Source: an uncultured Ectothiorhodospiraceae bacterium (GTDB lineage: Bacteria > Pseudomonadota > Gammaproteobacteria > JAABTG01). From it: a stretch of 64,000 bases of DNA. The notes under the pieces were generated by a model. It was given only the letters and a program-made list of their open reading frames with translations. It was not told the origin of the DNA and ran no database searches. Each line of letters starts with the position of its first letter. The first letter of the stretch is position 1. Shown piece by piece: positions 2,016 through 59,303 of this stretch. The DNA is taken from NCBI GenBank assembly GCA_964439835.1, contig CAYTPQ010000003.1:55468-119467 (forward strand). The letters run 5' to 3'. A program made the translations under genes and the position numbers.

Positions 2016-3131
2016 CTAACCGGCCCCGCGCGACTCGCGGTCCCACAGCACCTTCACGATCCGCTCCGCCGCGTGCCCGTCCCACAGCTCCGGGCGCCGG
2101 CCGACCTTACCCTGACCGTCGATGACCCGGTTCGCCTCGGCCAGGATCCGCTCGGGGTCCTGGCCGGCGAGCACGTTGGTGCCCTCGGTCACCGTGATCG
2201 GGCGCTCGGTGTTCTCGCGCGCCGTGACACAGGGGACACCCAGGGCGGTGGTCTCCTCCTGGATGCCGCCCGAGTCGGTCAGCACCAGACGAGCATTGTC
2301 CATACACTTTAAAAAGTCCAGGTAACCCAGCGGATCTACGAGCTTGAGGTCCCGGAAATCCCGCAGCCCCCGCTCCAGCCGGAACTCCCCTAGCTTGGCC
2401 CGGGTACGTGGGTGGATGGGAAAGACCACGGGCAGGCGCACCGACAGCGCCCCCAGGACCTCCAGCAGCCCAGCCAGGGTGTCGCGGTCGTCGACGTTCG
2501 AAGGCCGGTGCAGGGTGACCAGTGCGTAGCCGCGGGGGCTCAGACCCAGGTCTTCGAGCACCGGGCTGCGGCTCGCCTTCTCCCGGTGCCTGAGCAGCGA
2601 GTCGATCATCACGTTGCCGACGAAGAAGACCCGCTCCTCTGGGATCCCCTCCCGGCGCAGGTTCTCCAGCGCCGTGCGCTCGGTGGTGAAGAGGTAATCC
2701 GAGATCTGGTCGGTCAGGACCCGGTTGACCTCCTCTGGCATGCCGCGGTCGTAGGAGCGCAGGCCCGCCTCCACGTGGACGAGCTTGACGCCCATCTTCA
2801 CCGCGACCAGCCCGCAGGCGATGGTCGAGTTGACGTCACCGACCACCAGGACCAGGTCGGGCTTCAGCTGCTTCATCTCGCGCTCGAAGGCGATCATGAC
2901 CTTGCCGGTCTGCTCGCCGTGGCCACCGGAGCCGACGCCGAGGTACACGTCCGGCTTCGGCAGGCCCAGGTGGTCGAAGAAGAGCTGTGACATCTTGTGG
3001 TCGTAGTGCTGACCGGTGTGCACCACCAGCGGCTCGATCCCCGGCTGGGCCCGCATCGCCTCCCAGAGGGGGGCAACCTTCATGAAGTTCGGGCGGGCGC
3101 CGACGACGTTGACGATCTTGAGCGCGGGCAT
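2016..3131 (-). CDS. wecB: UDP-N-acetylglucosamine 2-epimerase (non-hydrolysing)
   Basis: MPALKIVNVVGARPNFMKVAPL...HTGQHYD...DSGGIQEE is full-length WecB/MnaA-like. The start was chosen at the internal Met that matches the family N-terminus. Confidence 0.9.
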   Translation of the reverse strand: MPALKIVNVVGARPNFMKVAPLWEAMRAQPGIEPLVVHTGQHYDHKMSQLFFDHLGLPKPDVYLGVGSGGHGEQTGKVMIAFEREMKQLKPDLVLVVGDVNSTIACGLVAVKMGVKLVHVEAGLRSYDRGMPEEVNRVLTDQISDYLFTTERTALENLRREGIPEERVFFVGNVMIDSLLRHREKASRSPVLEDLGLSPRGYALVTLHRPSNVDDRDTLAGLLEVLGALSVRLPVVFPIHPRTRAKLGEFRLERGLRDFRDLKLVDPLGYLDFLKCMDNARLVLTDSGGIQEETTALGVPCVTARENTERPITVTEGTNVLAGQDPERILAEANRVIDGQGKVGRRPELWDGHAAERIVKVLWDRESRGAG

Positions 3132-3474
3132 GGGGCAGTGGTAGGCGGGGTTTCCTGACCCGGAAGGAAGCGGGCGATGGCCGGGAGAGCGGCCGCTCCG
3201 GCCGGTTCTAAAGCGCCTCGCCGGGGGGGTCGCTAACGGCGGCACGGCGACCGGGCGTTGAATTGTACACGAGACCGAGAGCTAGGGGCCCGAAGAGAAG
3301 GTCTCCAGCGGTCCTCGGAGCAGAGTGCGGGCCACCCGTAGGGCCCTCCGGTCCCGGACAACGGGCAGGCGTGAGCGCCTGGGGACCTCGGCCTACAATC
3401 TGCCGGCGGCAGAGCAGGCCGCGCCGGCCACCGAACGCGTGCCCGACGACCGCTGGCCCCCTACTGGAGCGGAG

Positions 3475-4551
3475 ATGGGACCCCAAGGCTACACACTGTT
3501 GGTCACTGGCGGCGCCGGGTTTATCGGCTCGGAGGTCGTGCGCCAGGTCATCGCCGAGACCGACTGGACCGTGGTCAACGTCGACAAGCTGACCTACGCC
3601 GGCAATCTGGAATCCCTCGAGTCGGTCGCCGCCGACCCGCGCTATTACTTCGAGCGCGTCGACGTCTGCGACGCCGCGGCCGTGCAGGGCCTGTTCGCGC
3701 GCTACCGCCCCGACGCGGTCATGCACCTGGCCGCCGAGAGCCACGTCGACCGCTCGATCGACGGGCCGGCCGAGTTCATCCAGACCAATGTCTGGGGCAC
3801 CTACACCCTGCTGCAGGAGGCCCTGCGTCACTGGCGCACGCTCCCCGACGAGGAGCGCACGACCTTCCGCTTCCATCACGTCTCGACCGACGAGGTCTAC
3901 GGCTCACTGGGGGCAACCGGGCTCTTTACCGAGGAGACCCCGTACGCCCCCAACTCGCCCTATTCCTCGAGCAAGGCCGCCTCCGACCACCTGGTGCGGG
4001 CCTGGCACCACACCTACGGGCTACCGGTGGTCACCAGCAACTGCTCGAACAACTACGGCCCGTTCCAGTTCCCGGAGAAGCTGATACCGCTGGTCACGCT
4101 CAACGCGCTCGAAGGCAAACCGCTGCCGATCTACGGCCAGGGCGACAACGTGCGCGACTGGCTCTACGTCGGGGACCACGTGCGCGCGCTGCGCCGGATC
4201 CTGACGGCCGGCACACCGGGCGAGACCTACAACGTCGGCGGCAACAACGAGCGCACCAACCTGGAGGTCGTGCAGACGATCTGCGCGGTGCTGGACGCGC
4301 TGCGGCCGGACTCGCCCTACCGGCCCCACGCACAACTGATCACCTTCGTCACCGATCGTCCCGGCCACGACAAGCGCTACGCGATCGACGCCACCAAGAT
4401 CGCCCGCGAGCTCGGCTGGACGCCGGCGGAATCGTTCGAGTCGGGCCTGCGCAAGACCGTGCAGTGGTACCTGGACAACCCGCGCTGGTGGCAGCGCGTG
4501 CAGGACGGCAGCTATCAGCGCGAGCGACTGGGTCTCGGAGGCAGCGCATGA
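3475..4551 (+). CDS. rfbB: dTDP-glucose 4,6-dehydratase
   Basis: TGGAGFIGS Rossmann motif and YSSSKAASD catalytic motif. There is an SD (ggagcggag) before the ATG at 3475. Confidence 0.92.
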
Positions 4552-5423
4552 AGGGCATCATCCTCGCCGGCGGCAGCGGCACGCGGCTCTACCCGCTGAC
4601 CCAGGTGGTCAGCAAGCAGCTGCTGCCGGTCTACGACAAACCGATGGTCTACTACCCGCTGTCCACGCTGATGCTGGCGGGGATCCGGGAGATCCTGATC
4701 ATCTCCACGCCCCAGGACCTCCCGCGCTTTCGCGAGCTGCTCGGCAGCGGCGCCCAATGGGGTCTCGATCTCGCCTACGCCGAGCAGCCGCGGCCCGAAG
4801 GTCTCGCCCAGGCTTTCGTCATCGGCGCGCCGTTCGTCGGCGCCGACACGGTCTCCCTGGTACTCGGCGACAACATCTTCTACGGCCACCGCATGGCGAC
4901 CGTGCTGCAGCAGGCCGCGCGCGAGCGCGAGGGCGCGACCGTGTTCGGCTACTACGTCCGTGACCCCGAGCGCTACGGCGTCGTCGCCTTCGACGCCAGC
5001 GGGCGCCCGAGCCAGATCGTCGAGAAGCCGAAGGTCGCGCCGTCCAACATTGCCGTCACGGGGCTCTACTTCTACGACAACGAGGTGATCGAGGTCGCGC
5101 GCAACCTCAGGCCCTCGCCGCGGGGTGAGCTCGAGATCACCGACGTCAACGCCCATTACCTGGCACGGGGCCAGCTGCGGGTCGAGATGCTCGGCCGCGG
5201 CACCGCCTGGCTCGACACCGGCACCCACGAGTCGCTGCTGAAGGCCGGCCAGTTCGTGCAGCTCCTGGAGGAGCGCCAGGGGCTCAAGGTCGCCTGCCCC
5301 GAAGAGATCGCCTGGCGCATGGGCTACATCGACGACGAGCGCCTGGAGGCACTGGCCGCGCCGCTGGCGAAGAGCGGCTACGGCGAGTACCTGCTGGAGA
5401 TGCTGCGGCGGGGGGGACTATGA
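4548..5423 (+). CDS. rfbA: Glucose-1-phosphate thymidylyltransferase
   Basis: [18 protein letters not shown]... The ATG overlaps the rfbB stop as ATGA. Confidence 0.92.
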
Positions 5424-5580: not shown

Positions 5581-6132
5581 GTGAAGACCCAACAGACCGC
5601 ACTCCCCGGCGCGCTGATCCTGGAGCCGAAGGTCTTCGGTGACGCCCGTGGGTTCTTCATGGAGACCTGGAACCGGCGGCGCTACGTCGAGGCCGGCCTG
5701 CCCGGCGAGTTCGTCCAGGACAACGTCTCGTTCTCCCAACACGGCGTGCTACGCGGGCTGCACTACCAGCACCCGAACGCCCAGGGCAAGCTCGTCTACG
5801 TCCTCCAGGGCGAGGTCTTCGACGTGGCCGTCGACGTGCGGGTCGGCTCGCCGACCTTCGGGCGCTGGGCCGGGGTCACGCTCTCGGCGGAGAACCGGCG
5901 CCAGTTCTGGGTCCCGCCCGGATTCGCCCACGGCTTCTGCGTGACCGGCGAGACCGCGCTCTTCTGCTACAAGTGCACCGAGCTCTACGCCCCGGAGCAC
6001 GAGGGCTCGATCCTCTGGAACGACCCCGCAATCGGCATCGCCTGGCCGCTGGAGCACCCGGCGCTCTCGGCCAAGGACGCGGCGGCGCCGCCGCTGGCCG
6101 AGATAAGCCGCGCGCGCCTGCCGCCGGCGTGA
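5581..6132 (+). CDS. rfbC: dTDP-4-dehydrorhamnose 3,5-epimerase
   Basis: RmlC cupin motifs (DARGFFMETW, RGLHYQ, FWVPPGFAHGF) and a GTG start. No rfbD follows. Confidence 0.9.
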   Translation: MKTQQTALPGALILEPKVFGDARGFFMETWNRRRYVEAGLPGEFVQDNVSFSQHGVLRGLHYQHPNAQGKLVYVLQGEVFDVAVDVRVGSPTFGRWAGVTLSAENRRQFWVPPGFAHGFCVTGETALFCYKCTELYAPEHEGSILWNDPAIGIAWPLEHPALSAKDAAAPPLAEISRARLPPA

Positions 6133-6238: not shown

Positions 6239-7810
6239 TTGCTCCTTCACCACTTCGTTCGCGACCGGGCCGAGCACCGGCCCGAGGCGACTGCGCTGCG
6301 CTTGCGCGGCGAGGCCCTCGACTACGGCGAGCTGCAGGCCCGCATCGAGGCCTTCGCGCGGGGGCTCGTCGGTCTCGGCCTCGGTCCCTCCGAGCGCGTC
6401 GCCGTCTACCTGCCCAAGCGGTTCGAGACGGTGGTCGCGCTGTTCGGCGCCGCGGCGGCGGGCGGCGTGTTCGTGCCGGTCAACCCGCTGCTCAAGCCAG
6501 CCCAAGTCACCTATATCCTGAAGGACTGCAACGTCCGGGTGCTGGTCACCTCCGGGGACCGCCTGCCAATCCTCGCCGAGGGGCTGCGCGAGTGCCACGA
6601 CCTGCACACGGTCGTGCTGGTGGACGGCGTGCCAGAGGAGGCCCTCGGCCATGTGCGGGCACTGCCGTGGGCGGCGCTCGCCGAGGTCGACGGCGGCGCC
6701 ACGCCCCACCGCCGGATTGACATGGACATGGCGTCGATCCTGTACACCTCGGGCAGCACCGGGCGACCGAAGGGCGTGGTGCTCTCCCACCGCAACATGG
6801 TGACCGGGGCGCTGAGCGTCGCCGAGTACCTCCAGAACGTGGCCGAGGACCGCCTGCTGGCGGTGCTGCCGTTCAGCTTCGACTACGGCTTCAGCCAGCT
6901 CACGACCGCCTTCTCGGTGGGCGCGAGCGTCTCGCTGATGGACTACCTGCTGCCCCGCGACGTGGTGAAGGCGGTGGCCCGCGACCGCATCACCGGCCTC
7001 GCCGCGGTGCCGCCGCTCTGGGTCCAGCTCGCGCCGCTGGACTGGCCGGCCGATGCGGTGGAGAGCCTGCGCTACCTGACCAACTCCGGCGGCGCCATGC
7101 CGACCCGGGTGACCACGCGCCTGCGCGAGGCGCTGCCGAGGACACGCGTGTTCCTGATGTACGGGCTGACCGAGGCCTTCCGCTCGACCTATCTGCCGCC
7201 CGAGGAGCTGGACCGCCGCCCGGAGTCGATGGGCAGAGCCATCCCCAACGCCGAGATCCTGGTGGTACGCGAGGACGGCTCTCCCTGCGCCCCCGGCGAG
7301 CCCGGCGAGCTCGTACACCGCGGCTCGCTGGTCGCCATGGGCTACTGGAACGACCCCGAGCGGAGCGCCGAGCGCTTCAAGCCGGCGCCGGGCCAGCCGG
7401 CGGAGGTACCGCTGACCGAGATGGCGGTGTGGTCGGGCGACACCGTGCGCACGGACGAGGACGGTTTCCTGTACTTCGTCGGCCGGCGCGATGAGATGAT
7501 CAAGACCTCGGGCTACCGGGTGAGCCCGACCGAGGTCGAGGAGGTGCTTTACGCGAGCGGCCTGGTCGCCGAGGCCGCGGCCCTCGGCCTGCCGCACCCG
7601 ACCCTCGGCCAGGGGATCTGCGCCGTGGTCCAGCCCCGCGACGCCGCCTTCGACCCGGAATCCCTGCTGGCCGCCTGCAAGCGCGAGCTGCCGAACTTCA
7701 TGGTCCCGTTGCAGGTGGTGACCCGTGACGCCCTGCCGCGCAACCCGAACGGCAAGATCGACCGGCGTGCCCTGGCCGACGGCCTGCAGGGGCTCTGGGT
7801 CGAGTCGTGA
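6239..7810 (+). CDS. AMP-forming acyl-CoA ligase. It resembles the exosortase-A-system-associated ligase family
   Basis: Adenylate-forming motifs YTSGSTGRPKGV and GYRVSPTEVE...NGKIDR. The context, followed by a DapDC-fold decarboxylase and an AsnB-like gene, matches the exosortase-associated trio. The family assignment is from memory, not a search. TTG start. Confidence 0.8.
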   Translation: MLLHHFVRDRAEHRPEATALRLRGEALDYGELQARIEAFARGLVGLGLGPSERVAVYLPKRFETVVALFGAAAAGGVFVPVNPLLKPAQVTYILKDCNVRVLVTSGDRLPILAEGLRECHDLHTVVLVDGVPEEALGHVRALPWAALAEVDGGATPHRRIDMDMASILYTSGSTGRPKGVVLSHRNMVTGALSVAEYLQNVAEDRLLAVLPFSFDYGFSQLTTAFSVGASVSLMDYLLPRDVVKAVARDRITGLAAVPPLWVQLAPLDWPADAVESLRYLTNSGGAMPTRVTTRLREALPRTRVFLMYGLTEAFRSTYLPPEELDRRPESMGRAIPNAEILVVREDGSPCAPGEPGELVHRGSLVAMGYWNDPERSAERFKPAPGQPAEVPLTEMAVWSGDTVRTDEDGFLYFVGRRDEMIKTSGYRVSPTEVEEVLYASGLVAEAAALGLPHPTLGQGICAVVQPRDAAFDPESLLAACKRELPNFMVPLQVVTRDALPRNPNGKIDRRALADGLQGLWVES

Positions 7811-7879
7811 AGGCACCCACGCGCACCCCGCCACCCCGGCGCACGCACCCGCCCGCCCCGAGCCGAATCCGGTGACCCC

Positions 7880-9112
7880 ATGACCGAGCGCCCGACCCAC
7901 GCCCCGATGGACCAGTTCGCCGTGGTCGACGACTGCCTGCAGGTCGGCGGCGTGGCCCTCCCGCGGCTCGCCCGGCGCGTCGGTCAGACCCCTTTCTACG
8001 CCTACGACCGCCGGCTGATGAGCGAGCGCGTCGCACTCCTGCGTGCGGCCCTGCCACCCGGCGTCAGCCTGCACTACGCGGTCAAGGCCAACCCCATGCC
8101 GGCGGTGGTCCAGCACCTGGCGGGCCTGGTCGACGGGCTCGACGTGGCCTCCCTCGGCGAGCTGCGGACGGCCCTCGACACCGGCACCAGTCCCCACGTC
8201 ATCAGCTTCGCCGGCCCGGGCAAGACCGAGCGCGAGCTGGCCGCGGCGATGGCCTCCGGGATCACGATCAACCTGGAGAGCGAGGGCGAGCTGGAGCGGG
8301 CGGCCCGGGTCGGCGGCGAGATGGGCGAGCGTCCCCGCGTCGCCGTGCGCGTCAACCCGGACTTCGATCTGAAGTCATCGGGCATGAAGATGGGGGGCGG
8401 ACCCAAGGCCTTCGGCGTGGACGCCGAGCGGGTGCCGGCGATGCTGAATCGCATCGGCACGCTTTCGGTCGACTTCCAGGGCTTCCACATCTACTCGGGC
8501 TCCCAGAACCTGCGCGCCGAATCGATCGTCGAGGCCCAGACCCGCACCTTCGAGCTCGCCTTGCGCCTGGCGGCGCACGCGCCAGGGCCCGTGCGCCTGC
8601 TCAACATCGGCGGCGGCTTCGGCATTCCCTACTTCCCCGGCGATCGCCCGCTCGACCTCGGGCCGGTGACGGAGAACCTGCGGGCGCGTCTTCCGGAGGT
8701 TCGCCAGCGGCTCCCCCAGGCGGAGGTCGTGATCGAGCTCGGGCGGTATCTGGTCGGAGAGGCCGGCGTCTACGTCTGCGAGGTGATCGACCGCAAGGTC
8801 TCGCGCGGGCAGGTCTACCTCGTCACCAACGGCGGCCTGCACCACCATCTGGCGGCGTCCGGAAACTTCGGCCAGGTGATCCGCAAGAACTATCCGGTGG
8901 TGGTCGGCAACCGCGTGCGCGGCAACGAACGCGAGATTGCGAACGTCGTCGGCCCGCTCTGCACACCGCTCGACATCCTGGCCGAGAAGACCGAGCTCGC
9001 GCGGGCAGACGTCGGCGACCTGATCGCGGTCTTCCAGTCTGGGGCGTACGGACTCACCGCAAGCCCGCTCGGCTTCCTCAGCCACCCAAAAGCGCTGGAA
9101 GTGCTCGTCTAG
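7880..9112 (+). CDS. PLP-dependent decarboxylase of the Orn/DAP/Arg decarboxylase fold. It resembles the exosortase-A-associated decarboxylase
   Basis: YAVKANP PLP-lysine motif, a GGGFGIPY region and C-terminal CTPLD...GAYG, which is DapDC-like. Confidence 0.85.
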   Translation: MTERPTHAPMDQFAVVDDCLQVGGVALPRLARRVGQTPFYAYDRRLMSERVALLRAALPPGVSLHYAVKANPMPAVVQHLAGLVDGLDVASLGELRTALDTGTSPHVISFAGPGKTERELAAAMASGITINLESEGELERAARVGGEMGERPRVAVRVNPDFDLKSSGMKMGGGPKAFGVDAERVPAMLNRIGTLSVDFQGFHIYSGSQNLRAESIVEAQTRTFELALRLAAHAPGPVRLLNIGGGFGIPYFPGDRPLDLGPVTENLRARLPEVRQRLPQAEVVIELGRYLVGEAGVYVCEVIDRKVSRGQVYLVTNGGLHHHLAASGNFGQVIRKNYPVVVGNRVRGNEREIANVVGPLCTPLDILAEKTELARADVGDLIAVFQSGAYGLTASPLGFLSHPKALEVLV

Positions 9113-9184
9113 CAGCGACCGGGTCGCGCCGTGCGCCGGCGTCCGGCGGGGCGTCATCGCCGGACGTGGCTGCCGGTCTCCGGA

Positions 9185-9259
9185 GATTCTTCTAGGCCGG
9201 TCTTACCTTAGGTCAAACTACCTAACTAGCTGTTTGTAATAAATAATCCACGTCGATTT
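9185..9259 (+). promoter_or_regulatory. AT-rich intergenic region. Putative promoter/leader of the LuxR-type gene, with a strong SD (aaggagg) at its 3' end
   Basis: Local GC drops sharply against the ~70% background (...gtttgtaataaataatccacgtcgatttttgttggcaaggagg). No confident -35/-10 pair could be called. Confidence 0.3.
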
Positions 9260-10534
9260 TTGTTGGCAAGGAGGACCGGATGGGCTATCTTTCGATTTCG
9301 TGTTGTGGCCCTTGGATGGGTATCCTTCGATCAGTCGGTAGGGACTGCCGTTACACCGAGCAACGCGGGTTCCGGGGGAAGGGTGCCGCGAAGCGGCGAC
9401 GAGTTGTTGCCGGTATTGCAGTGCCTCTGCGATGCGGCGCTCGACGACATGGCATGGGGGCGCTTCCTCGAGGCCCTCTGCAGGAGCACGAGCAGCGTAG
9501 AAGCTGACCTATTCGTCGTCGACCCCCTCACGACACGCTGCACCAGCTGCATCAGCTACGACCTGGAGAAGAACTGGGTCGGTCGTTGTGACCTACAGGC
9601 GAGCGACAAGTGCGTGTGGGTGCAGTTTCGCCCCGCTCTCCAACCTGCGGACGACTCCGTCGGGACGCCCCAGGTGCGGGAAATCAGTGCCTGTCCGACA
9701 GGGATATCGGTCGTCTTCGGCGCAGTCCCGCCGAATCCGCGGCTGTCCGTCACGGAGCTGTGGCGTCACGACGGTCGGCAGGCTTACCTGGCTCTGAGGC
9801 GCAAGGATGATTCGCCACTGGCCGGCGAGCACGCAGAGACCCTCGACGCCATCCTTCCTTTCCTGCGGCGGGCGTTCCTGGTCGCCTACCGGCTGGAGAG
9901 CGGTGAGCGACGCAATGCGATGCTCGTGCGCGCTATCGAGCACAGCACCACCGGAATCACGCTGCTCGAGGCCCACGGCCAGATTGTCTATACCAATCAG
10001 GCCGCCCGCGAAATCCTGACCCAGGACGACGGGCTATTCGCCGAGGGGGGGCGACTGCGCGCCTCGCGCAAGGCCGACGACGACGCGTTGCAGGACCTGG
10101 TGCGCCGCGCTGCAGGGTCGATCCCGGATCATCAGCCGCTCATCGGCGGCATCATCGCTGTGCCCCGGCGCTCGGGCCAGGCGCCCTACACGGTCGCGGC
10201 GGTACCCGTGCGTCTGGAACCGACAGCGCTGCGCAACGACGAGGCAGTCGCCACCGTGTTCCTCTCGGACCCCACCGCGCTGCACGACATCAGTGACACG
10301 CACATCCGACGTATCTACCGGCTGACCCCCAAGGAGGCGCAACTCGCGGTCCTCCTCACCAGGGGCGCAACGGTGGCGGCAGCCGCCACCGAACTCGGCA
10401 TGGCAGAGAAGACCGCCCGCATCCACCTGCAAGGGCTATTCCGGAAGACCGGCACCCGCCGGCAGGTGGACCTCGTGCGCGTGCTCCTCCACAGTGCAGG
10501 CCCCACCCGCTCTCCCACCAGAGAAGCGATCTAG
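9260..10534 (+). CDS. LuxR-family transcriptional regulator: large N-terminal domain of unknown type plus a C-terminal LuxR/GerE HTH
   Basis: C-terminal LTPKEAQLAVLLTRGATVAAAATELGMAEKTARIHLQGLFRKTGTRRQVDLV is a LuxR-type HTH. The 5' end is uncertain. The strong SD+ATG at 9280 is in a different frame, and the long ORF begins with TTG. Confidence 0.6.
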   Translation: MLARRTGWAIFRFRVVALGWVSFDQSVGTAVTPSNAGSGGRVPRSGDELLPVLQCLCDAALDDMAWGRFLEALCRSTSSVEADLFVVDPLTTRCTSCISYDLEKNWVGRCDLQASDKCVWVQFRPALQPADDSVGTPQVREISACPTGISVVFGAVPPNPRLSVTELWRHDGRQAYLALRRKDDSPLAGEHAETLDAILPFLRRAFLVAYRLESGERRNAMLVRAIEHSTTGITLLEAHGQIVYTNQAAREILTQDDGLFAEGGRLRASRKADDDALQDLVRRAAGSIPDHQPLIGGIIAVPRRSGQAPYTVAAVPVRLEPTALRNDEAVATVFLSDPTALHDISDTHIRRIYRLTPKEAQLAVLLTRGATVAAAATELGMAEKTARIHLQGLFRKTGTRRQVDLVRVLLHSAGPTRSPTREAI

Positions 10535-10739
10535 CCGCCAGCCGGCATCCGGCCCACCGTCGCCCGCCGCAGCCACAGGCCTTGTGGGGGCACGAGGTCA
10601 ACGGCAAGTTTCCGAACGGGACGCTCAAGGCAGTGTAGGCTGCCGCCGACATGCTCGGGAATCCGGGCCACCTCGCTGCTAGAGGCGAGCCTACCGTCCC
10701 CAACCTCACGCACCACGGTCAGACCAAAGGCCAAGCCAC

Positions 10740-12680
10740 ATGTCCAGGTACTCGGCGGAGCCCGCACAAGACGCTTCACCCGGTTCCCGCCCCCCGCCGG
10801 CCCGTCCCGTCGACTCGAACTGGCTCTGCGGGGTCTTCGACCCGACCGCGGCCGTGCCCCCGAGCGAACGCCTCGGGCCGATGGCAGCGACTGCACCGGC
10901 CTCGGCCCGTCCCGCCACCGCCGCCACCGCCAACGGCTGCACCGTCGCGGCCCACTGGGCGGCCACGGCCGAGGGCCTGCTGGTCGGCGTGGCGGGACAC
11001 CCGTACTGGGACGGGGCGCCCACGGACCTCCCGCAGGACCCCGCCGCGGCGCTGGCAGTTCTCTATCGCCGCATGGGCGAGCGCTGCCTGGCCCCGCTGC
11101 GCGGCGCCTTCACGGTGGCCGTCTACGACCCCGCGGCCGGGACCGGCCTGCTCGCCATCGACCGCATCGGCCAGCACCACCTGTACTACGCGCAGGTCGG
11201 CGAGGCCCTCGCCTTCGGCTCCTCCGCCGACGCGGTGCTGGCCTTCCCGGGCGTGCCGCGCGAGCTCTCCCACGACGCCCTGTTCCAGTACCTGTACTTC
11301 CACATGATCCCGAGCCCGGGGACGGTCTACCGCGCGGTCTCCAAGCTCGAAGGCGCCCACTGCCTCCTCTTCCGCCCCGGCCGCGTCGAGGTCCGTCCCT
11401 ACTGGCGCCCGACCTTCGTCGAGACCTGGGGCGGCCGCGATCAAAGGGGTCTGACCCCATCGGTCCGCGATCAATGGGGTCAGACCCCTTTGATCCGGGC
11501 AGCGGGGGAAGAGCTGCGGGCGCTGCTCCAGGCGGACGTCGCCCGCTACTGCGACCTCCCCGGGGTCGGCGCCTTCTTGAGCGGGGGGCTCGACAGCTCG
11601 ACCGTCGCCGGTCTCCTCGCGCGGGTCCGGCCCGGGGAGGCCCACACCTACTCGGTCGGGTTTGCCGAGGAGCAGTACAACGAGCTGCCTTACGCGCACC
11701 TCAGCGCCGACTGGTTCAAGACCACCCAGCACGACGTCATCGTCTGCCCCGACGACGCCCTCACCGCCGTTGCCACGGTCGCAGCGGCCTTTGACGAGCC
11801 CTTCGGCAACTCCTCGGCGCTCGCCGCCTACTTCTGTGCCAAAGCCGCGCGGGCGGACGGCGTCACCCGGCTCATCGCCGGCGACGGCGGCGATGAGCTC
11901 TTCGCCGGCAACGAGCGCTACGGCAAGCAGCTGGTGTTCGAGGCCTATTTCCGGCTGCCGGTGGCGCTGCGCCGGGGCCTCCTGGAGCCACTGCTGCTCG
12001 GCATCCCCGCCCTCGATCGGGTCCCGTTGGTGAAAAAAGGCGTGAGCTACGTGCGCCAGGCGCTCGTGCGGCTGCCCGACCGCTTCGACACCTACAGCTA
12101 CCTGCACCGGCACCCCCTCACCGAGATCTTCCAGCCGGACTTCCTCGCCAGCGTCGACACCGGGGCCCCGTCGCGCGCGATGCAGGCGCTCTGGGACGCG
12201 GTGCCCGGCGCCAGCACCGTCAACCGGATGCTGTTCCTCGACTGGAAGAAGACCCTGCAGGACAACGACCTGGTCAAGGTCAACCGCATGGCCGAGGCCG
12301 CGGGGGTCGAGGTCGTCTACCCGATGCTGGACGACGCGGTGGTGGAGCTCTCCTGCCGGGTACCGAGCCGGCTGAAGCTGAAACCGGGGCAGCTGCGCTA
12401 CTTCTACAAAGAGGCGATGCGCGGGTTCCTGCCGCCCGAGACCCTGAGCAAGAAGAAGCACGGCTTCGGCCTGCCGTTCGCCATCTGGATCACGAGCCAC
12501 CGGCCGCTGCAGGAGCTCGCCTACGACAGCGTGCTGGCCCTGCGCGACCGCCCCTACCTCCGGCCCGAGTTCTTGGAGAGGGCGATCCGCCTTCATCAGC
12601 ACGATACGGCGGTCTACTACGGCGAGCTGGTCTGGATCCTGATGATGTTGGAGCAGTGGCTGCGCTCTCGCGGTCTCTGA
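10740..12680 (+). CDS. Asparagine synthetase-like glutamine amidotransferase. It resembles exosortase-A-associated amidotransferase 1
   Basis: Class-II GATase region (LCGVFD...), AsnB PP-loop SGGLDSS and a C-terminal AsnB domain. It contains an in-frame family A repeat (11437-11496). An N-terminal extension lies before the catalytic Cys. Confidence 0.8.
   Translation: MSRYSAEPAQDASPGSRPPPARPVDSNWLCGVFDPTAAVPPSERLGPMAATAPASARPATAATANGCTVAAHWAATAEGLLVGVAGHPYWDGAPTDLPQDPAAALAVLYRRMGERCLAPLRGAFTVAVYDPAAGTGLLAIDRIGQHHLYYAQVGEALAFGSSADAVLAFPGVPRELSHDALFQYLYFHMIPSPGTVYRAVSKLEGAHCLLFRPGRVEVRPYWRPTFVETWGGRDQRGLTPSVRDQWGQTPLIRAAGEELRALLQADVARYCDLPGVGAFLSGGLDSSTVAGLLARVRPGEAHTYSVGFAEEQYNELPYAHLSADWFKTTQHDVIVCPDDALTAVATVAAAFDEPFGNSSALAAYFCAKAARADGVTRLIAGDGGDELFAGNERYGKQLVFEAYFRLPVALRRGLLEPLLLGIPALDRVPLVKKGVSYVRQALVRLPDRFDTYSYLHRHPLTEIFQPDFLASVDTGAPSRAMQALWDAVPGASTVNRMLFLDWKKTLQDNDLVKVNRMAEAAGVEVVYPMLDDAVVELSCRVPSRLKLKPGQLRYFYKEAMRGFLPPETLSKKKHGFGLPFAIWITSHRPLQELAYDSVLALRDRPYLRPEFLERAIRLHQHDTAVYYGELVWILMMLEQWLRSRGL
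11437..11496. repeat. Family A palindromic element, copy 1, inserted in frame inside the AsnB-like CDS
   Basis: gatcaaaggggtctgaccccat-cggtccgc-gatcaatggggtcagacccctttgatc. The half-sites are reverse complements of each other. It is translated as ...DQRGLTPSVRDQWGQTPLIR... Confidence 0.75.
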
Positions 12681-12847: not shown

Positions 12848-14752
12848 TCAGTCGGCCTCCCGGCCCACGCGGGACGGTAGGGCGAAAGCGCTCGGCGCGC
12901 CCTCGATCTCCTTCAGCCGCGCATCGCCTGCGGCGGCCTCGCCGGTGGTGAGGCGCGCCGGCTCCCGCACCTCCTCCTCCGCCTGCTGGAGTGCCCACAT
13001 CCGGGCGTAGAGGCCGTCCGCGGCCAGCAGGTCGTGGTGACTGCCCTGCTCCACCACCCGGCCCTGGTCCAGCACCAGGATCCGGTCGGCATCGACGATG
13101 GTCGACAGGCGGTGGGCGATGACGAGCGTGGTGTGCTCGGCCGCCACCTCGTCCAACGCCCTCTGGATGGCGCGCTCGGCCCGGGTGTCGAGGGCCGAGG
13201 TGGCCTCGTCGAAGATCAGGATCGGAGAGGCCTTGAGGATCACCCGGGCAATCGCCACCCGCTGCTTCTCGCCGCCGGAGAGCTTCAGGCCGCGCTCGCC
13301 GACCACCGTGTCGTAGCCCTGGGGCAGGGAGGCGATGAAGTCGTGAATGTGGGCCAGCCGGGCCGCGCGCTCGACCTCCTCGCGCGAGGCATCGGGGCGG
13401 GCGTAGGCGATGTTGTAGTAGATGCTGTCGTTGAACAGCACCGTGTCCTGGGGGACGATGCCGATGGCCGAGCGCAGGCTCGCCTGAGTGACCTCCCGCA
13501 GGTCCTGGCCATTGACGGTGACCCGCCCCCCGGTCACGTCGAAGAAGCGGTACAGCAGGCGGGCGAGGGTCGACTTGCCGGCCCCGCTCGGGCCGACCAC
13601 CGCGACCTTGGTCCCGGGGCGGATCTCGAAGTCGACCCCGCGCAGGATTGCGCGGTCGGGCTGGTAGGCAAAGTCCACCCCCTCGAAGCGCACCCCGCCG
13701 GCACCGACCGCCAGCGCGGGCGCCCCCGGCCGGTCCCGGATCTCGGGCTCCCGGTTCAGTAACCGCACGAGCAGGTCCATGTCCGCCAGGGCGTACTTGA
13801 TCTGGCGGTAGACGATCCCGAGGAAGTTGAGCGGGATGAAGAGCTGCAGCAGGAAGGCGTTGACCAGTACCAGGTCGCCGAGGGTCATCGTGCCGGCCAC
13901 CACTCCCCGGGCGGCGAAGACCATCAGCAGCGTCACGCCGACGGCGATGATCGCCCCCTGGCCGAAGTTCAGGGCCGACATGGAGGTCTGGCTCTGGACC
14001 GCGGCGTGCTCCCACCCGGCCAGGGTGTGGTCGTAGCGCCGGACCTCGCTGCCCTCGTTGCCGAAGTACTTGACCGTCTCGTAGTTGATCAGGCTGTCGA
14101 CCGCCTGGGTGTTGGCCTCGGACTCGAGCCGGTTCATCTCGTGGCGGAAGTGCATGCGCCAGTCGGTGATGGCGAAGGTGAACCAGACGTAGACCGCCAC
14201 CGTGGCGAACGTGACCAGGGTGAAGACGGGGTCGTAGCGGGTCAGCAGGATCGCGGCGACCAGGCCGAACTCCACCAGCGTCGGCAGCACGTTGAAGACC
14301 ATGTAGTTCAGGATGGTGCTGACGCTGCGGGTGCCGCGCTCCAGGTCGCGGAAGATGGCCCCGGTCTTGCGCTCCAGGTGGAAGCGCAACGACAGGTCGA
14401 GCAGGTGCGAGAGCACCCGGTCCGAGAGCCGGCGCATCGCGCGGTAGCGGACCTTGGCGAAGACCGCGTCGCGCAGCTCGTTGAAGAAGGCCGCGGCCAT
14501 CTTGAGCGCGCCGTAGGCCGCGAGCAGCGCGACCGGCAGGACCAGCTCCGGGTGCCGGCCCGGGTCCAGGGCGTCGACGATGTCCTTCAGCACCAGCGGC
14601 ACGCCGACGTTGGCGACCTTCGCGAGCAGCAGCGAGCCGAGCGCCAGCAGCACCCGGCCCCGGTACTCCCAAACGTAGGGCAGCATCGCCCGGACGTTCC
14701 GGAGGTCGTCCCGGTCTTTGTGCGGGTCTTCGGTGTAGCCGGTGGCGAACAT
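12848..14752 (-). CDS. ABC transporter, fused permease/ATPase (ATM1/HMT1-like exporter)
   Basis: Six-TM domain followed by Walker A GPSGAGKST, signature LSGGEKQR and Walker B ILIFDEATSALD. Confidence 0.85.
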   Translation of the reverse strand: MFATGYTEDPHKDRDDLRNVRAMLPYVWEYRGRVLLALGSLLLAKVANVGVPLVLKDIVDALDPGRHPELVLPVALLAAYGALKMAAAFFNELRDAVFAKVRYRAMRRLSDRVLSHLLDLSLRFHLERKTGAIFRDLERGTRSVSTILNYMVFNVLPTLVEFGLVAAILLTRYDPVFTLVTFATVAVYVWFTFAITDWRMHFRHEMNRLESEANTQAVDSLINYETVKYFGNEGSEVRRYDHTLAGWEHAAVQSQTSMSALNFGQGAIIAVGVTLLMVFAARGVVAGTMTLGDLVLVNAFLLQLFIPLNFLGIVYRQIKYALADMDLLVRLLNREPEIRDRPGAPALAVGAGGVRFEGVDFAYQPDRAILRGVDFEIRPGTKVAVVGPSGAGKSTLARLLYRFFDVTGGRVTVNGQDLREVTQASLRSAIGIVPQDTVLFNDSIYYNIAYARPDASREEVERAARLAHIHDFIASLPQGYDTVVGERGLKLSGGEKQRVAIARVILKASPILIFDEATSALDTRAERAIQRALDEVAAEHTTLVIAHRLSTIVDADRILVLDQGRVVEQGSHHDLLAADGLYARMWALQQAEEEVREPARLTTGEAAAGDARLKEIEGAPSAFALPSRVGREAD

Positions 14753-20773: not shown

Positions 20774-23581
<2,808 letters not shown>

Positions 23582-23612
23582 ATCGACCCGTTCCCGATCG
23601 AAGGAGGATGTC

Positions 23613-24749
23613 ATGTCCCACCGTGCACCGAATTCCGCAACCGCCCACCGCCGGACCGTTCTCCTCGCCCGCACGCTGGGAGCCGCCGTCTTGATCGCGT
23701 CCCTGCCCGGCCTGCCCGCCCTCGCCCAGACCGAGCCCGCCGCGGGACCCGGTCCAGCCGCCGTGGCGGACGCCGACCGTCTGCAGCAGGAGATCGACGC
23801 CCTCAAGCGTCAGCTCGGGGCCCTGAAAGACGAGGCCAGCGCCGCCGCGGCGAAGCTCTCCGGTGAGAAGGACACCCTGGCGAAGGACCTGACCGAGGCC
23901 AAGAAGGCCCTGGGCCGAGCCGAGGCCGAGCGGGACGCGAAGGCTGCGGCCGTCGCCCAAGTGGAGAAGGCCCGGACGGAGGCCGATCAGGCGGCCAAAG
24001 ACGCCCAGGCAAAGCTCGCGGCGACGGAGAAGGCCTGGGCGGAAAAGGTCGCCGCCGCCGAGAAGTCAACGGCCGAGAAGCTGGCGGCCGCCGAGCAACG
24101 CATGAAGGAGCTGGGGGACCGGGCCGAGGCGGCCGCGAAGGACGCGGCAGACCGGGTCGCGGCGGCGGAGAAGGCTGCCGCCGAGCGTCTGGCGTCGGCG
24201 CAGGCCGAGGCGAAGGCCCAGGCCGAGCGGGCAACGACGCTCGCCGCCGAGCGCGACGCGGCGGCCAAGGCCCGCGAGGCGGCCGAGCAGGCGCTCGCCG
24301 GCGCCAAGTCCGCGGCAGCGACCGCAGAGGCCGCGCTGGGGACGCTGAAGGGCCGGGTCGCCGCCCTCGAGACCTCCCTGGAAGACGCCCGCTCGCGGGT
24401 GCCGGTCGGCCAGGGCGGCGCCTTCACCCTCGAACAGGCCCAGGGCCTGGCGGCGCAGGCCGGGGCAGCCTACGTCGCCGCCGCGAAAGAGGCCAGGGAG
24501 AAACCGTCAGCCGCGACCCGCGCCGCCGCCGACGAGGCGATGCAGCGCCTGCGTGCGGCGCAGCTCGACGTGGCCCGCATCATCGGCGCCCGCGGCGTCT
24601 ACCCGTTGCGCAAGGAGGACACCCTGGCGATCGTATCGGCCCGCTTCTACGGCAGCCCCAACCGTTGGCCGGCGATCTTCGAGGCCAACAAGGCCGTGCT
24701 GGGGAACCCCGACCAGGTGCTGCCGGGGATCACCGTCGTGGTCCCCTGA
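23613..24749 (+). CDS. Secreted Ala/Glu/Lys-rich coiled-coil protein with a C-terminal LysM peptidoglycan-binding domain
   Basis: Signal peptide (TVLLARTLGAAVLIASLPGLPALA), a long low-complexity repetitive coiled-coil (AAAEKxAAEK...) and a C-terminal LysM (DTLAIVSARFYGSPNRWPAIFEANK). Confidence 0.7.
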   Translation: MSHRAPNSATAHRRTVLLARTLGAAVLIASLPGLPALAQTEPAAGPGPAAVADADRLQQEIDALKRQLGALKDEASAAAAKLSGEKDTLAKDLTEAKKALGRAEAERDAKAAAVAQVEKARTEADQAAKDAQAKLAATEKAWAEKVAAAEKSTAEKLAAAEQRMKELGDRAEAAAKDAADRVAAAEKAAAERLASAQAEAKAQAERATTLAAERDAAAKAREAAEQALAGAKSAAATAEAALGTLKGRVAALETSLEDARSRVPVGQGGAFTLEQAQGLAAQAGAAYVAAAKEAREKPSAATRAAADEAMQRLRAAQLDVARIIGARGVYPLRKEDTLAIVSARFYGSPNRWPAIFEANKAVLGNPDQVLPGITVVVP

Positions 24750-32357: not shown

Positions 32358-33713
32358 CTAGGTGACGCCGCGGGCGTTGAGGGCGCGGGCGAGGGCCCGG
32401 TCGGCGTGGTGGATGTGGGCGAGCAGCCACTCCTTGATCCCCACCAGGGTGCGGGACAGGCCGTCCGACTCGAGCCGGCGGTCGAGGGCCGAGAGCTCGC
32501 TCAGGAGCCGCTGGTGCTGCTCTCGGTGCACGTCGGCGCCACCGACGGCGTGGGTGGCCATGAGGGCCTCCTCGGTCGCGAAGTGCAGGGCGGTGTAGCC
32601 CGTCAGGTCGGCGAGCAGCATGCGCACCGTCGCGGTCTCCTCGGCGGCGGCAATCGCCCGCGCCAGGGCGTTCACCCGGGAGACCATCTCCCGGTGCTGC
32701 GCGTCGATCACCGTGACGCCGATCTCGTGATCGGCTGACCAGGCGATCAGGGGCACCTCGCGCGACGAGGCGAGGGGCGTGCTGTCGTCGGCGAAGGTGT
32801 AGCAGCCCTTGCCGCGCTCCTTGCTGGCGTACATCGCGCCGTCGGCCGCCGCCAGCAGCGCGTCCACGGTGAGGCCGTGGGCCGGGCAGATCGCCAGGCC
32901 GACGCTAGCGCCGACCCGCACCGAGCCTTCGCCCAGTTCGACGGGCTCGGCGACTGAAGCGACCACTTTGGCGGCAATGCGCTCGAGGGCCGGGCGCTGG
33001 GTGGCGCGGTTGAGCAGCACGGTGAACTCGTCACCACCCATGCGTGCCACCGTGTCAGACTCGCGCACGCAATCCAGCAGGCGGCGCGCGACCACCTTCA
33101 GGACCGTGTCGCCCGAGTCGTGGCCGCGGCTGTCGTTCACGTCCTTGAAGCCGTCCAGGTCCAGGAGCATCAGCGCGAAGCCCTCGCCGTAGCGGCGGGC
33201 GTGGTGGACGGCCTGGGTGACGCGGTCGAGCAGCAGGGCCCGGTTGGGGAGACCGGTGAGCGCGTCGGAGAAGGCGAGCTGGTGGAGCTCGCGCTCGGCC
33301 CGCACCCGGTCGGTGACGTCAGCGAGCATGCCGACCACCACCGCGTGGCCGTGGTCGCGGATCCGCCGGCCCGACGCCTCCACCTCCATGACGCTGCCGT
33401 CCCGGCGCAGGGCGGCGAACGTCAACGGCGCGTCCTGGCCTTCTCCCCGGCGAAGGCCGGCGAGCCAGGCGGCCACCCGCTCCCGGTCCTGCAGGGCGAC
33501 CAGGTCGGCGAGCGGCCGGCCGGCCGGGGACTCCCCGGGGCGATAGCCAAATACGCCGGCAAACCGGGCGTTCGACGAGACCAGCCGCTCGTCCTCGAGC
33601 ACGAAGACGCCAATGAGGGACTGCTCGACCAGTGCCCGGTAACGAAGGGCCGTCTCCCGCAGCTCGGTCAGATCGTCCACCACCGCCACCGACTCCAGGC
33701 CCGCACCGCGCAT
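32358..33713 (-). CDS. Diguanylate cyclase with an N-terminal PAS domain and a C-terminal bacteriohemerythrin domain (PAS-GGDEF-Hr)
   Basis: GGDEF motif (ARMGGDEFTV). C-terminal hemerythrin His/Glu ligands (HF..EE..M, HREQH, AHIHHAD). SD gagggga before the ATG at 33713. Confidence 0.8.
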   Translation of the reverse strand: MRGAGLESVAVVDDLTELRETALRYRALVEQSLIGVFVLEDERLVSSNARFAGVFGYRPGESPAGRPLADLVALQDRERVAAWLAGLRRGEGQDAPLTFAALRRDGSVMEVEASGRRIRDHGHAVVVGMLADVTDRVRAERELHQLAFSDALTGLPNRALLLDRVTQAVHHARRYGEGFALMLLDLDGFKDVNDSRGHDSGDTVLKVVARRLLDCVRESDTVARMGGDEFTVLLNRATQRPALERIAAKVVASVAEPVELGEGSVRVGASVGLAICPAHGLTVDALLAAADGAMYASKERGKGCYTFADDSTPLASSREVPLIAWSADHEIGVTVIDAQHREMVSRVNALARAIAAAEETATVRMLLADLTGYTALHFATEEALMATHAVGGADVHREQHQRLLSELSALDRRLESDGLSRTLVGIKEWLLAHIHHADRALARALNARGVT

Positions 33714-33898
33714 CCCCGCGTCCCCTCTGCGACCGCGGGAAGAATGAAACACAGGTTAAGCGACGGGACAAGCCCCGGCAGCGGTAAGCGCCCAGGCCTC
33801 CCGCGGCCACGGCAGCGAGGAGGTTGCAGGCCGGAGCGACGTCCGGAACGCGCGGTCGGGCTCCGGTGCGGAAACGGACCGTGCGGATGCGAGCCGCG

Positions 33899-41993: not shown

Positions 41994-42124
41994 CTCCCCT
42001 CCGCGCTCCTGGATCAGCCCACCGCAACCCGCGGCCAGGGCTCTGGGCGGCGGCGCCGCCACCTGCAGACCCCCGCCGGCCCATCGGAGGCAGAGCGGCC
42101 CGGGCGCACGAGTATACTGGCCGC

Positions 42125-50485: not shown

Positions 50486-50630
50486 GGGTGGGGGCAAACC
50501 GCCCGTTGCGGGCGCGGCTGGGGCGTCGGGCGGATCCAGCCACAGTATAGGGCCTCGGCGGGGCCACGGCCCGCGCGGTGCTACTATCCTCCCCAGAGTC
50601 CTCCGCAGAGGACCCCGCCGCGAGGTGACC

Positions 50631-51425: not shown

Positions 51426-51606
51426 GCCACTTCGCGCCGCCCACCGCCCTGATCGCCGCCGGGGCTTAAAGGAGCAGCGGGCGGAGCCGCTAAGTCCGGG
51501 GCGACAGAGACCACGCAGACGCCCAAGAGACCCCGAGCGCCCCAACCGGCCGCGACGGGGCGAAGGCCCTCTGCCCATTCATGGGGTGGGATCGCTTCAC
51601 CGGCGC

Positions 51607-57038: not shown

Positions 57039-57143
57039 GGCGGTGTCCGTCAGGATGGCCGCCAGACCCGGCAGGCGCAGGCCGTCGCCGCGCCATCCGC
57101 CGGGCGTCCGGGGGGTCGCGCAAGCCGCGTCGCGCGACCCACC

Positions 57144-59074: not shown

Positions 59075-59303
59075 CGGCGGGCGACTGGACTCCGGCGGCC
59101 GGGTTGCTCGCCCGAGCGGCCCCGGCCGCGGGAGGGCGCGAGCGGCCGGCCCCGGAGGGGATCGGCTCCCGTATCCTAGGCGGCCCCCTGAGGGGGTTCA
59201 AGCCGCCGCCCTGACGCGCGGCACGCCGCGCGCAATACCAAAGAACGGGCGGGGGCGACGCCCTTTTCGGGTATCATCTCCCGTCGCCACCGTTGCCAAG
59301 GGG

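Follow-up and report, generated by a model that had tools for sequence, protein, structure and literature searches.

The ligase, decarboxylase and AsnB-like genes

In a 64,000-nucleotide stretch of DNA from an uncultured Ectothiorhodospiraceae bacterium (contig CAYTPQ010000003.1; we call this whole stretch the window), three genes follow one another on the forward strand: an adenylate-forming ligase (LIG), a decarboxylase that depends on pyridoxal phosphate (PLP), called DEC here, and an AsnB-like adenylating enzyme (ASNL), with the gene of a PAS-LuxR regulator standing between the last two. An earlier note on this DNA took the three for the accessory enzymes of exosortase A (XrtA/PEP-CTERM) exopolysaccharide loci, and proposed that they could form a stand-alone module for modifying a surface polysaccharide. 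The genes are the following.

6239-7810, + strand: LIG, exosortase-A-system-associated adenylate-forming ligase (TIGR03098; AMP-binding and AMP-binding_C domains)
7880-9112, + strand: DEC, exosortase-A-system-associated PLP decarboxylase, BtrK-like (TIGR03099; Orn/DAP/Arg decarboxylase fold)
9260-10534, + strand (open reading frame; called product 9383-10534, 383 aa): PAS-like and GerE/LuxR-type regulator (GerE 25.6 bits, weak PAS match)
10740-12680, + strand: ASNL, AsnB-like adenylating enzyme (Asn_synthase domain)

Plain listings of open reading frames (ORFs) are crowded with spurious frames here, because the G+C content of the window is ~71%. The true series of genes was picked out of such lists by the G+C content at codon positions, and identities were assigned using NCBIfam and Pfam. 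All three genes lie where the earlier note had placed them and are supported by codon-position G+C, with third-position values (GC3) of 0.91-0.94 for the genes of the locus and of 0.78 for the regulator. LIG and DEC are on the same strand, with a gap of 70 bp between them. All three are real genes, undamaged and held by purifying selection: measured against the closely related locus L006, dN/dS is 0.22 for LIG, 0.22 for DEC, and 0.26 for ASNL, similar to the values for the flanking sugar-nucleotide genes.

The ligase and the decarboxylase belong to exosortase-A-associated families

The assignment of the first two genes to exosortase-A-associated families, as opposed to generic FadD and LysA, is borne out by the family models. 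LIG scores 805.9 bits on TIGR03098 (cut-off 592.35), with residues 2-513 covering profile positions 1-515 of 517, and no fatty-acid ligase model gives it more than 318 bits, all of them far under their cut-offs. DEC scores 629 bits on TIGR03099 (cut-off 478.45), and only 233.4 bits on the lysA equivalog TIGR01048, under the cut-off of 297.9.

Among solved structures, the top matches of LIG are the A domains of LgrA (296 bits) and the entries 3wvn/3wv4 (209.5 bits), which the PDB table describes only as "Non-ribosomal peptide synthetase" and which we take to be structures of VinN; synthetases that load beta-aminoacyl groups on an acyl carrier protein (ACP) are also found. Judged by sequence, LIG is most like the amino-acid adenylation enzymes that either stand alone or are part of non-ribosomal peptide synthetases (NRPS). 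Its core motifs are intact (TSGSTGRPK, FDYGF, YGLTE, GRRDEMIKTSG, NGKI). The equivalents of the amino-binding Asp235 and of the catalytic Lys517 are invariant across 79 LIG orthologues, and the predicted pocket residues, DYSATSM..K, are the same in 33 orthologues, many of them from full XrtA-type loci. This pocket code, anchored on a fragment of GrsA, uses only Asp235, Lys517, and seven intermediate positions, since positions 330/331 cannot be aligned reliably.

The top PDB match of DEC is BtrK, the L-glutamyl-[BtrI ACP] decarboxylase, at 268.6 bits, compared with 170.8 for the best diaminopimelate decarboxylase. When a profile of the whole DEC family is compared to PDB, BtrK reaches 405.8 bits and the diaminopimelate decarboxylases 298.5 or less. 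In an alignment of 25 sequences numbered by the DEC of the window, the PLP lysine K69 is invariant, and so are H203, E286, C361, D365, and Y390. The best match of DEC among species-representative genomes has 76% identity, and its nearest named relatives are from Competibacteraceae, at 74-77%.

The AsnB-like gene represents a separate family without a glutaminase site

The third gene had been taken for the exosortase-A amidotransferase, and here the family models do not agree. The best-scoring model for ASNL is indeed that of the XrtA amidotransferase, TIGR03108, with a score of 272.6 bits, far from its cut-off of 816.9; on TIGR01536 (asparagine synthase, glutamine-hydrolysing) ASNL scores 215 bits, under the cut-off of 267.1. 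Both matches begin only at residue 108-109 of ASNL.

ASNL shares with TIGR03108 proteins and with AsnB a two-domain architecture, the PP-loop (SGGLDS, kept in the synthetase half), and a conserved synthetase domain. What differs is the glutaminase half. There is a CGVF motif in ASNL, but its Cys is residue 30 and the codon before it is CTC, which is not a start; the nearest start is an ATG 28 codons upstream. About 50 homologues of ASNL have an N-terminus of the form MxG[LIVF]CGW, or one where Phe, Asp, or Ala replaces the Cys, or a truncated one, so the Cys is found at position 4-6 or is missing, and it is never residue 2. In an alignment of the family to the true TIGR03108 protein of locus L086, Cys1 has no aligned counterpart, the region of Arg49 is deleted in 30 of 32 sequences, Asn74 is replaced by Gly in all 32 and Glu76 by Pro in 28 of them, and the equivalent of Asp98 is Pro or His in most members. 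Locus L086 carries both kinds of gene, the true TIGR03108 protein (1028.4 bits) being the one found beside XrtA (TIGR03109, 296.2 bits). Going by these residues, ASNL is a member of an unnamed AsnB-like family that has lost all the glutaminase catalytic residues; it is distinct from TIGR03108, although current models do not separate the two. Because the glutaminase site is destroyed, ASNL is not an amidotransferase.

By profile comparison, the nearest relatives of ASNL with a solved structure are the hydroxyamidotransferase TsnB9 (7ylz, 131.5 bits), E. coli AsnB (103.7 bits), human asparagine synthetases (~68 bits), beta-lactam synthetase (1jgt, 56.9 bits), and CarA (1q15, 49.3 bits). Enzymes working with other nitrogen donors thus stand alongside glutamine-dependent asparagine synthetases, and the similarity is remote in all cases. 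TsnB9, beta-lactam synthetase, CarA, and the lasso-peptide cyclases adenylate a carboxylate using ATP, which is then attacked by a nitrogen that does not come from glutamine. Unlike for those enzymes, there are no lasso, beta-lactam, or hydroxamate pathway genes near ASNL. As a lasso-peptide cyclase ASNL was rejected, with 114.5 bits on NF033535 and a cut-off of 525.

Two observations about this gene are worth adding. Over its 3′ two-thirds (11097-12659), ASNL has 89% DNA identity with L006 (10286-11848), compared with 78-83% for the other syntenic genes, which could be due to stronger constraint or to recent exchange. And in Methylomagnum ishizawai (L010, 10001-13250) downstream of a glutaminase-dead AsnB-like gene come that of a GT4 glycosyltransferase and a 55-aa ORF with a weak match to the PEP-CTERM domain, in a place where there is no ligase-decarboxylase pair; we see in it a further hint that the ASNL family belongs to the PEP-CTERM world.

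The cassette in other genomes

For the comparative survey, the alignment of 25 decarboxylases was used to collect 80 species-representative genome loci with flanks of up to 10 kb per side, in which ORFs were clustered and the representatives of the clusters annotated. A set of 84 loci adds to these the window and three loci from homologue look-ups (L001, L004, and L006). A further set consists of 80 metagenome loci.

We observe that LIG adjoins DEC in 73 of the 80 species-representative loci, and that ASNL is present anywhere in 28 of them and directly downstream of DEC, on the same strand, in 20, mostly in XrtA-type contexts. With such adjacency, the co-occurrence of ligase, decarboxylase, and AsnB-like genes goes beyond chance. 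Other genes found near DEC are an 86-aa ACP with a DSM motif (39/80), hydrolase 1 or 2 (35/80; TIGR03100 310 bits, TIGR03101 263.9 bits), PrsK/PrsR (15/80), EpsB_2 (TIGR03013, 13/80), and PEP_O_lig_1 (TIGR03097, 13/80). The models for PrsK and PrsR are TIGR02916 and TIGR02915, and true members in these loci score 892.8 and 681.1 bits, respectively. In its fullest form, the layout of the cassette is HY1< HY2< ACP< (GNAT) LIG> DEC> ASNL>, where HY1 and HY2 are the two hydrolases and the arrows give the direction of each gene. Zoogloea, Thauera, and Janthinobacterium have this layout in full. The proposal that the trio is an accessory cassette of XrtA loci thus holds insofar as a recurrent ligase-decarboxylase-AsnB-like unit exists, although its third member is not the one that had been named.

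The window shares with the cassette of XrtA loci (TIGR03098-TIGR03101 plus ACP) the passed cut-offs, the adjacency, the orientation, the ligase pocket, and an AsnB-like gene downstream. It differs in having none of ACP, hydrolases, PrsK/PrsR, EpsB_2, PEP_O_lig_1, or XrtA within the 64 kb, in having dTDP-sugar genes that separate the pair from its usual protease neighbour, and in having the PAS-LuxR gene after the decarboxylase. Taking as XrtA-system markers the ACP, hydrolases 1 and 2, PrsK, PrsR, EpsB_2, and PEP_O_lig_1 (seven in total), 36 of the 48 loci that have at least 8 kb on both sides include one or more, and 12 include none.

In a neighbour-joining tree, the clade of the window, L091, and L006 is sister to a clade of Competibacteraceae, all of them orphan pairs, and both together branch within gammaproteobacterial sequences whose gene neighbours are of the XrtA type. 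The detachment is therefore derived, and a trait of the whole clade. In Competibacteraceae the pair sits among genes for fatty-acid oxidation and type VI secretion, the AsnB-like gene being elsewhere, and the pair is kept in many genomes of the family (74-77% identity).

Exosortase-system genes in the window

We searched the 64 kb for the rest of the system. Using tblastn with up to 12 representatives per family, no ACP, hydrolase 1 or 2, EpsB, or PEP_O_lig was found, and a full-length homologue of PrsK was not found either, the queries matching only the generic kinase domain at 49022-50806. The annotated ORFs of the window include nothing like an exosortase or a PEP-CTERM protein. The statement of the earlier note that no exosortase, PEP-CTERM, or ACP gene is near the trio is therefore correct for the 64 kb, and in a relative, L094, no exosortase-system gene is found within ~6 kb past the left edge. 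But not having an exosortase in reach says little: of the 84 loci, a single one has XrtA within 10 kb of DEC, so that its absence is weak evidence by itself. One tblastn match to ACP (54903-55004, E-value 4e-4) lies inside an O-acetylhomoserine sulfhydrylase gene, and was dismissed.

As for the histidine kinase and response regulator at 47-50 kb, which the earlier note had described as GlrK/GlrR-like and not PrsK/PrsR, the regulator part stands and the kinase can only be called generic. The response regulator at 46988-48541 scores best on GlrR (615.4 bits), compared with 374.5 on PrsR, under the cut-off of 502.6. For the kinase at 49022-50806, PrsK (cut-off 300) is not among the best 25 of 65 matching families. 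The only glycosyltransferase in the window is a GT2 protein at 57144-58424, about 45 kb off the trio.

Flanking genes and close relatives

The genes on both sides of the trio are the following.

to 807, + strand: 3′ end of a photolyase gene
824-1744, - strand: trypsin-like (S1/HtrA-like) serine protease (Pfam Trypsin_2; only weak NCBIfam matches, no specific family)
2016-3245, - strand: wecB, UDP-N-acetylglucosamine 2-epimerase (TIGR00236, 331.4 bits, cut-off 210.15; syntenic in L006, L093, and L094)
3496-4551, + strand: rfbB, dTDP-glucose 4,6-dehydratase (TIGR01181, 493.9 bits, cut-off 365.1; ORF from 3325, match from residue 58)
4548-5423, + strand: rfbA, glucose-1-phosphate thymidylyltransferase (TIGR01207, 479.4 bits, cut-off 360.65; ORF from 4464, match from residue 29-30)
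5581-6132, + strand: rfbC, dTDP-4-dehydrorhamnose 3,5-epimerase (TIGR01221, 256.5 bits, cut-off 155.75)
12848-14752, - strand: MsbA-like fused ABC exporter, convergent with ASNL (ABC_membrane and ABC_tran domains; TIGR02203, 417 bits, under the cut-off of 602)

The position of the trio downstream of wecB and rfbBAC, with rfbD missing, is as had been described: the four genes pass their equivalog cut-offs, and tblastn finds no RmlD-like sequence anywhere in the 64-kb window nor in L006, L093, or L094.

L006, with ~80% protein identity, has wecB, rfbBAC, hldE (717 bits), LIG, DEC, and ASNL, without a LuxR gene, and then GtrA, FdtA/acetyltransferase, and GT2 genes. L091/L093 has the protease, wecB, rfbBAC, LIG, DEC, a LuxR gene, a GDSL lipase, and an ABC ATPase, without ASNL. 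The stretch downstream of DEC thus differs among all three close relatives (window, L006, and L091/L093). The exporter is not conserved in the relatives, and the synteny with L006 stops at the stop codon of ASNL. On the other side, L094 extends past the photolyase into an MFS transporter, a cyclase-like protein, and a PilZ-DUF1631 protein, with no XrtA locus in those ~6 kb. The 340-bp gap between LIG and DEC in L006 (8100-8438) was considered as the place of a hidden ACP; it is a low-complexity repeat, of which one frame reads LSIYLSIYLSIY, and it does not hold a gene.

An rfb linkage to the pair also appears far outside the lineage of the window. A metagenome contig of 44% GC (L154, 10013-20780) has the protease, rfbB-rfbD-rfbC-rfbA with rfbD present, LIG, a DUF2442 ORF, DEC, two repeat/beta-helix proteins, and, ~3 kb downstream of DEC, hydrolase 1. 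Because of that hydrolase, we conclude that rfb linkage also arises inside an XrtA-type context. The 94-aa ORF between LIG and DEC, another candidate for a hidden ACP, is the DUF2442 protein.

In gammaproteobacterial loci, a divergent gene for a trypsin-like protease usually adjoins the ligase; in the window, wecB and rfbBAC stand between the two. Homologues of the protease with 51-59% identity occur in eight genome loci, divergent beside LIG in four (L016, L019, L063, and L071) and, in the other four (L020, L030, L038, and L057), no more than ~7 kb from DEC. Among the 80 metagenome loci, nine have the gene of an XrtA-type priming glycosyltransferase, EpsB_2, immediately after that of the protease (TIGR03013 572.5 bits in L152), with PrsK/PrsR further along in L166/L167, and in L107, L149, and L152 the protease gene adjoins LIG. 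Instances of this recurrence, either beside the ligase-decarboxylase pair or upstream of EpsB_2, are L016, L019, L063, L071, L149, L152, L162, L165-L167, and L170-L172. The trypsin-like protease may be an overlooked component of gammaproteobacterial XrtA loci.

The PAS-LuxR regulator

The regulator is rare. It has only 18 homologues in 5.8 billion proteins, it gives no match above noise against NCBIfam, and it was not found in 90 related loci (L001-L090). A gene of its kind follows the decarboxylase in L091/L093 (5980-7155 in L091), where identity to the regulator of the window is 62%, compared with 88% for LIG and 86% for DEC. The interruption of the trio by a LuxR-type regulator, to which the earlier note had drawn attention, is thus true of the window, and a regulator after the decarboxylase is found in one close relative; it is missing in L006 and in the rest of L001-L090. 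By its distribution, the regulator is confined to the close relatives of the window; its identities and its GC3, lower than that of its neighbours, show it to be either fast-evolving or separately acquired. A promoter-like site is predicted at 9263-9291. Identification of the regulator as EpsA was rejected, as TIGR03020 is not matched even at an E-value of 0.1 and the only matches, at most 24 bits, are to generic GerE domains. Insertion of the LuxR gene by a mobile element was also considered, and notable flanking repeats were not found.

A possible pathway

The homology of DEC to BtrK and the likeness of LIG to VinN suggest a decarboxylation that takes place on a carrier protein, followed by the formation of an amide. 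In such a pathway, LIG would adenylate an amino acid with a second carboxylate, of the aspartate or glutamate type, and would attach it by its side-chain carboxylate, in a thioester linkage, to a dedicated carrier protein of small size. DEC would then remove the alpha-carboxylate of the tethered amino acid to leave an omega-aminoacyl thioester, of the beta-alanyl or 4-aminobutyryl type, as BtrJ/BtrI/BtrK and VinN/VinL/VinO do. ASNL could form an amide at the expense of ATP, with an amine not derived from glutamine, in the role that a second ligase (BtrJ, VinM) has in capping the free amine; another option is that it joins the unit to a carboxylate on the polymer. The alpha/beta-hydrolases would transfer or release the product. 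With no ACP gene in the window, it is likely that the three enzymes rely on genes located elsewhere. We infer the class of substrate, the dependence on a carrier protein, the role of ASNL, and that the missing partners (ACP, hydrolases, and XrtA) are encoded elsewhere in the genome.

Two antibiotic pathways have this logic. In butirosin biosynthesis (BtrI/BtrJ/BtrK; PDB 2j66, 7ru7), BtrJ is an ATP-grasp ligase. BtrK is the solved protein nearest to DEC, and the cassette, in the loci where it is more complete, has a small ACP and a loading ligase, which would amount to the same decarboxylation of a tethered substrate. It differs from butirosin in that LIG is an adenylating enzyme of the ANL superfamily, and in that the window lacks aminoglycoside genes. 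For vicenistatin, 3-methylaspartate is first loaded on the ACP VinL by VinN; decarboxylation by the PLP enzyme VinO comes only after that, and the amine so freed is acylated by another ATP-dependent enzyme (PMC11284099). The elements in common with VinN/VinL/VinO(/VinM) are an adenylation enzyme that stands alone, an ACP that also stands alone, a PLP decarboxylase acting after the thioester is formed, and a second ATP-dependent enzyme. Compared with this and related beta-amino-acid macrolactam pathways, there is no polyketide synthase (PKS) here, the candidate for the second enzyme is AsnB-like and not an A domain, and the context is that of Proteobacteria and exopolysaccharides as opposed to Actinobacteria and antibiotics.

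Weighing the explanations

We consider that the region is a detached part of the exosortase A exopolysaccharide accessory cassette, of which only the right-hand half (LIG, DEC, and ASNL) is present, and we give this reading a probability of about 0.55. Several observations weigh against it. The genes for the carrier protein, hydrolases 1 and 2, PrsK/PrsR, EpsB, PEP-CTERM proteins, and XrtA are not found in the 64 kb, and the trio without any of the seven markers in reach occurs only in the window and in L006. Of the 48 loci with full flanks, only L031 has ASNL without ACP or hydrolases, and yet it has EpsB-PrsK-PrsR. The rfb genes adjoin the ligase in the relatives of the window and, arranged differently, in L154, and this adjacency could reflect a functional tie to dTDP-sugar metabolism. 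For LIG, a substrate can be proposed only by class, pocket residues 330/331 not being reliably aligned. And in the open literature that we searched there is no characterised member of TIGR03098, of TIGR03099, or of the AsnB-like family; that literature names neither of the two models, and under the topics of exosortase and Competibacter nothing is said about the chemistry of the ligase or the decarboxylase.

The sugar genes are also what a different explanation would start from, namely that this is a self-standing module, independent of any exosortase, that decorates lipopolysaccharide (LPS), O-antigen, or some other surface polysaccharide made from the products of wecB and rfbBAC, with the PAS-LuxR protein as its local regulator. 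A block of protease, wecB, rfbBAC, ligase, and decarboxylase is kept in three related genomes with ~80-90% protein identity, the distant L154 has rfb genes beside the pair (rfbA-C-D-B), L006 adds hldE and its GtrA, FdtA/acetyltransferase, and GT2 genes, an MsbA-like exporter comes next in the window, two of the three close relatives have the LuxR gene after the decarboxylase, and there is no XrtA marker in the 64 kb. However, in Competibacteraceae the same pair has fatty-acid oxidation and type VI secretion genes as neighbours and the AsnB-like gene is elsewhere, so the pair has no stable tie to sugar genes; the three close relatives each differ in what follows the decarboxylase; nearby there is no gene for a glycosyltransferase, a flippase, or a polymerase; the rfb linkage of L154 comes with hydrolase 1, an XrtA-type context; and the pocket of the ligase is the same as that of orthologues in XrtA loci. 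In addition, the nearest characterised homologues act on substrates bound to a carrier protein and require one, and the window has no gene for it. The stand-alone modification module of the earlier note is for these reasons unlikely. The detached arrangement could also mean that the genes are relics of a broken-up ancestral XrtA locus, persisting by inertia with no working pathway behind them. The ACP and both hydrolases are missing from the 64 kb, Competibacteraceae and the clade of the window are orphan as a whole, and the AsnB-like and LuxR genes come and go downstream of the decarboxylase among close relatives. Against this, the three ORFs are full-length, with intact catalytic motifs and dN/dS values (0.22-0.26) like those of the adjacent sugar-nucleotide genes, and the pair is kept across many Competibacteraceae genomes at 74-77% identity; we regard decay as quite improbable.

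Two more explanations do away with the polysaccharide altogether. One is a secondary-metabolite cluster, or one for a ribosomally synthesised and post-translationally modified peptide (RiPP), whether lasso-peptide-like, from an AsnB-like cyclase with the ABC exporter, or using the ligase and the decarboxylase for a product similar to a siderophore or to an aminoglycoside side chain. It would account for an AsnB-like gene convergent with a fused ABC exporter, for the weak similarity to a lasso cyclase (114.5 bits on NF033535), and for the resemblance of DEC and LIG to the antibiotic-pathway enzymes BtrK and VinN. It is very improbable given that the cyclase score is far under 525, that the exporter is not conserved in relatives, that no PKS, NRPS, or aminoglycoside genes are in the window, and that the same three families are found among exopolysaccharide genes and PrsK/PrsR in dozens of genomes; the annotated ORFs include no lasso B protease, and a precursor-peptide gene was not identified either, though without systematic screening of the small ORFs. 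The other, hardly credible, is that these are generic housekeeping neighbours, a FadD-type acyl-CoA synthetase, LysA, and AsnB. The Pfam domains are generic, and JGI labels the homologues "diaminopimelate decarboxylase" and "asparagine synthase". Yet the ligase prefers TIGR03098 to any fatty-acid ligase model (805.9 vs. at most 318 bits), the decarboxylase fails lysA (233.4 vs. 297.9) and passes TIGR03099, the AsnB-like protein stays under the cut-off of the AsnB equivalog and lacks a glutaminase site, and the gene order recurs across classes of Proteobacteria.

Returning to the detached part of an exosortase A cassette, the window copy is made of known XrtA accessory families, biochemically uncharacterised, in an arrangement that is typical of the wider clade, and it is not a new system. 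A bolder proposal, which we regard as distinctly unlikely in all its parts together, is that the BtrK-like decarboxylase and the glutaminase-dead AsnB-like enzyme form, together with the ligase and a carrier protein, an undescribed pathway that adds an omega-amino-acyl or amide substituent (e.g. beta-alanyl or 4-aminobutyryl) to the XrtA exopolysaccharide, and that this substituent could even be the amine that accepts PEP-CTERM proteins from exosortase A. On this proposal, the lineage of the window, which is related to Competibacteraceae, would have separated the pathway from the XrtA locus and placed it next to dTDP-sugar genes, with a PAS-LuxR regulator of its own, and the target may have changed to LPS.

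In wastewater and soil bacteria, the formation of flocs and biofilms is driven by the XrtA/PEP-CTERM system. We see three leads for work on its accessory genes. The BtrK-like decarboxylase family points to an amino acid substrate tethered to a carrier protein; the frequent third partner is the unnamed AsnB-like family without a glutaminase site, distinct from the named XrtA amidotransferase; and in Gammaproteobacteria the gene of a trypsin-like protease recurs near the pair as well. If the genome were to lack xrtA, the orphan copies would be natural experiments on the module's own function, and their interest would rise.

Other features of the window

A scan of the window for tRNAs and Rfam families gives zero matches, and its first 16 kb have a single short tandem repeat. 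Beyond the ABC exporter come TehA, an RND efflux pair, and PEP carboxylase. The remaining genes are unrelated to exopolysaccharide synthesis or protein sorting, and include a molybdopterin oxidoreductase, GGDEF/EAL proteins, NrdD, the GlrR-like regulator, the O-acetylhomoserine sulfhydrylase, and a Mur-ligase-family protein, among others. The 457-aa ORF at 23376-24749 (+ strand, GC3 0.86) has no Pfam match. It runs into the ends of both the PEP carboxylase and the HrpB gene, and is unlikely to be a true gene. A 598-aa ORF at 40347-42143 (- strand, GC3 0.93) has a strong coding signal and no NCBIfam match at an E-value of 1e-10 or less. At 56268-59197 (- strand), the GT2 glycosyltransferase is part of a run of genes with an M90 metallopeptidase and a YdjC-like protein. 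Genes for cyclic di-GMP (c-di-GMP) signalling often control the production of exopolysaccharides, and the window is rich in them, with a PAS-GGDEF-hemerythrin protein at 32358-33755 (- strand) and a large GGDEF-EAL protein at 50746-54042 (+ strand).

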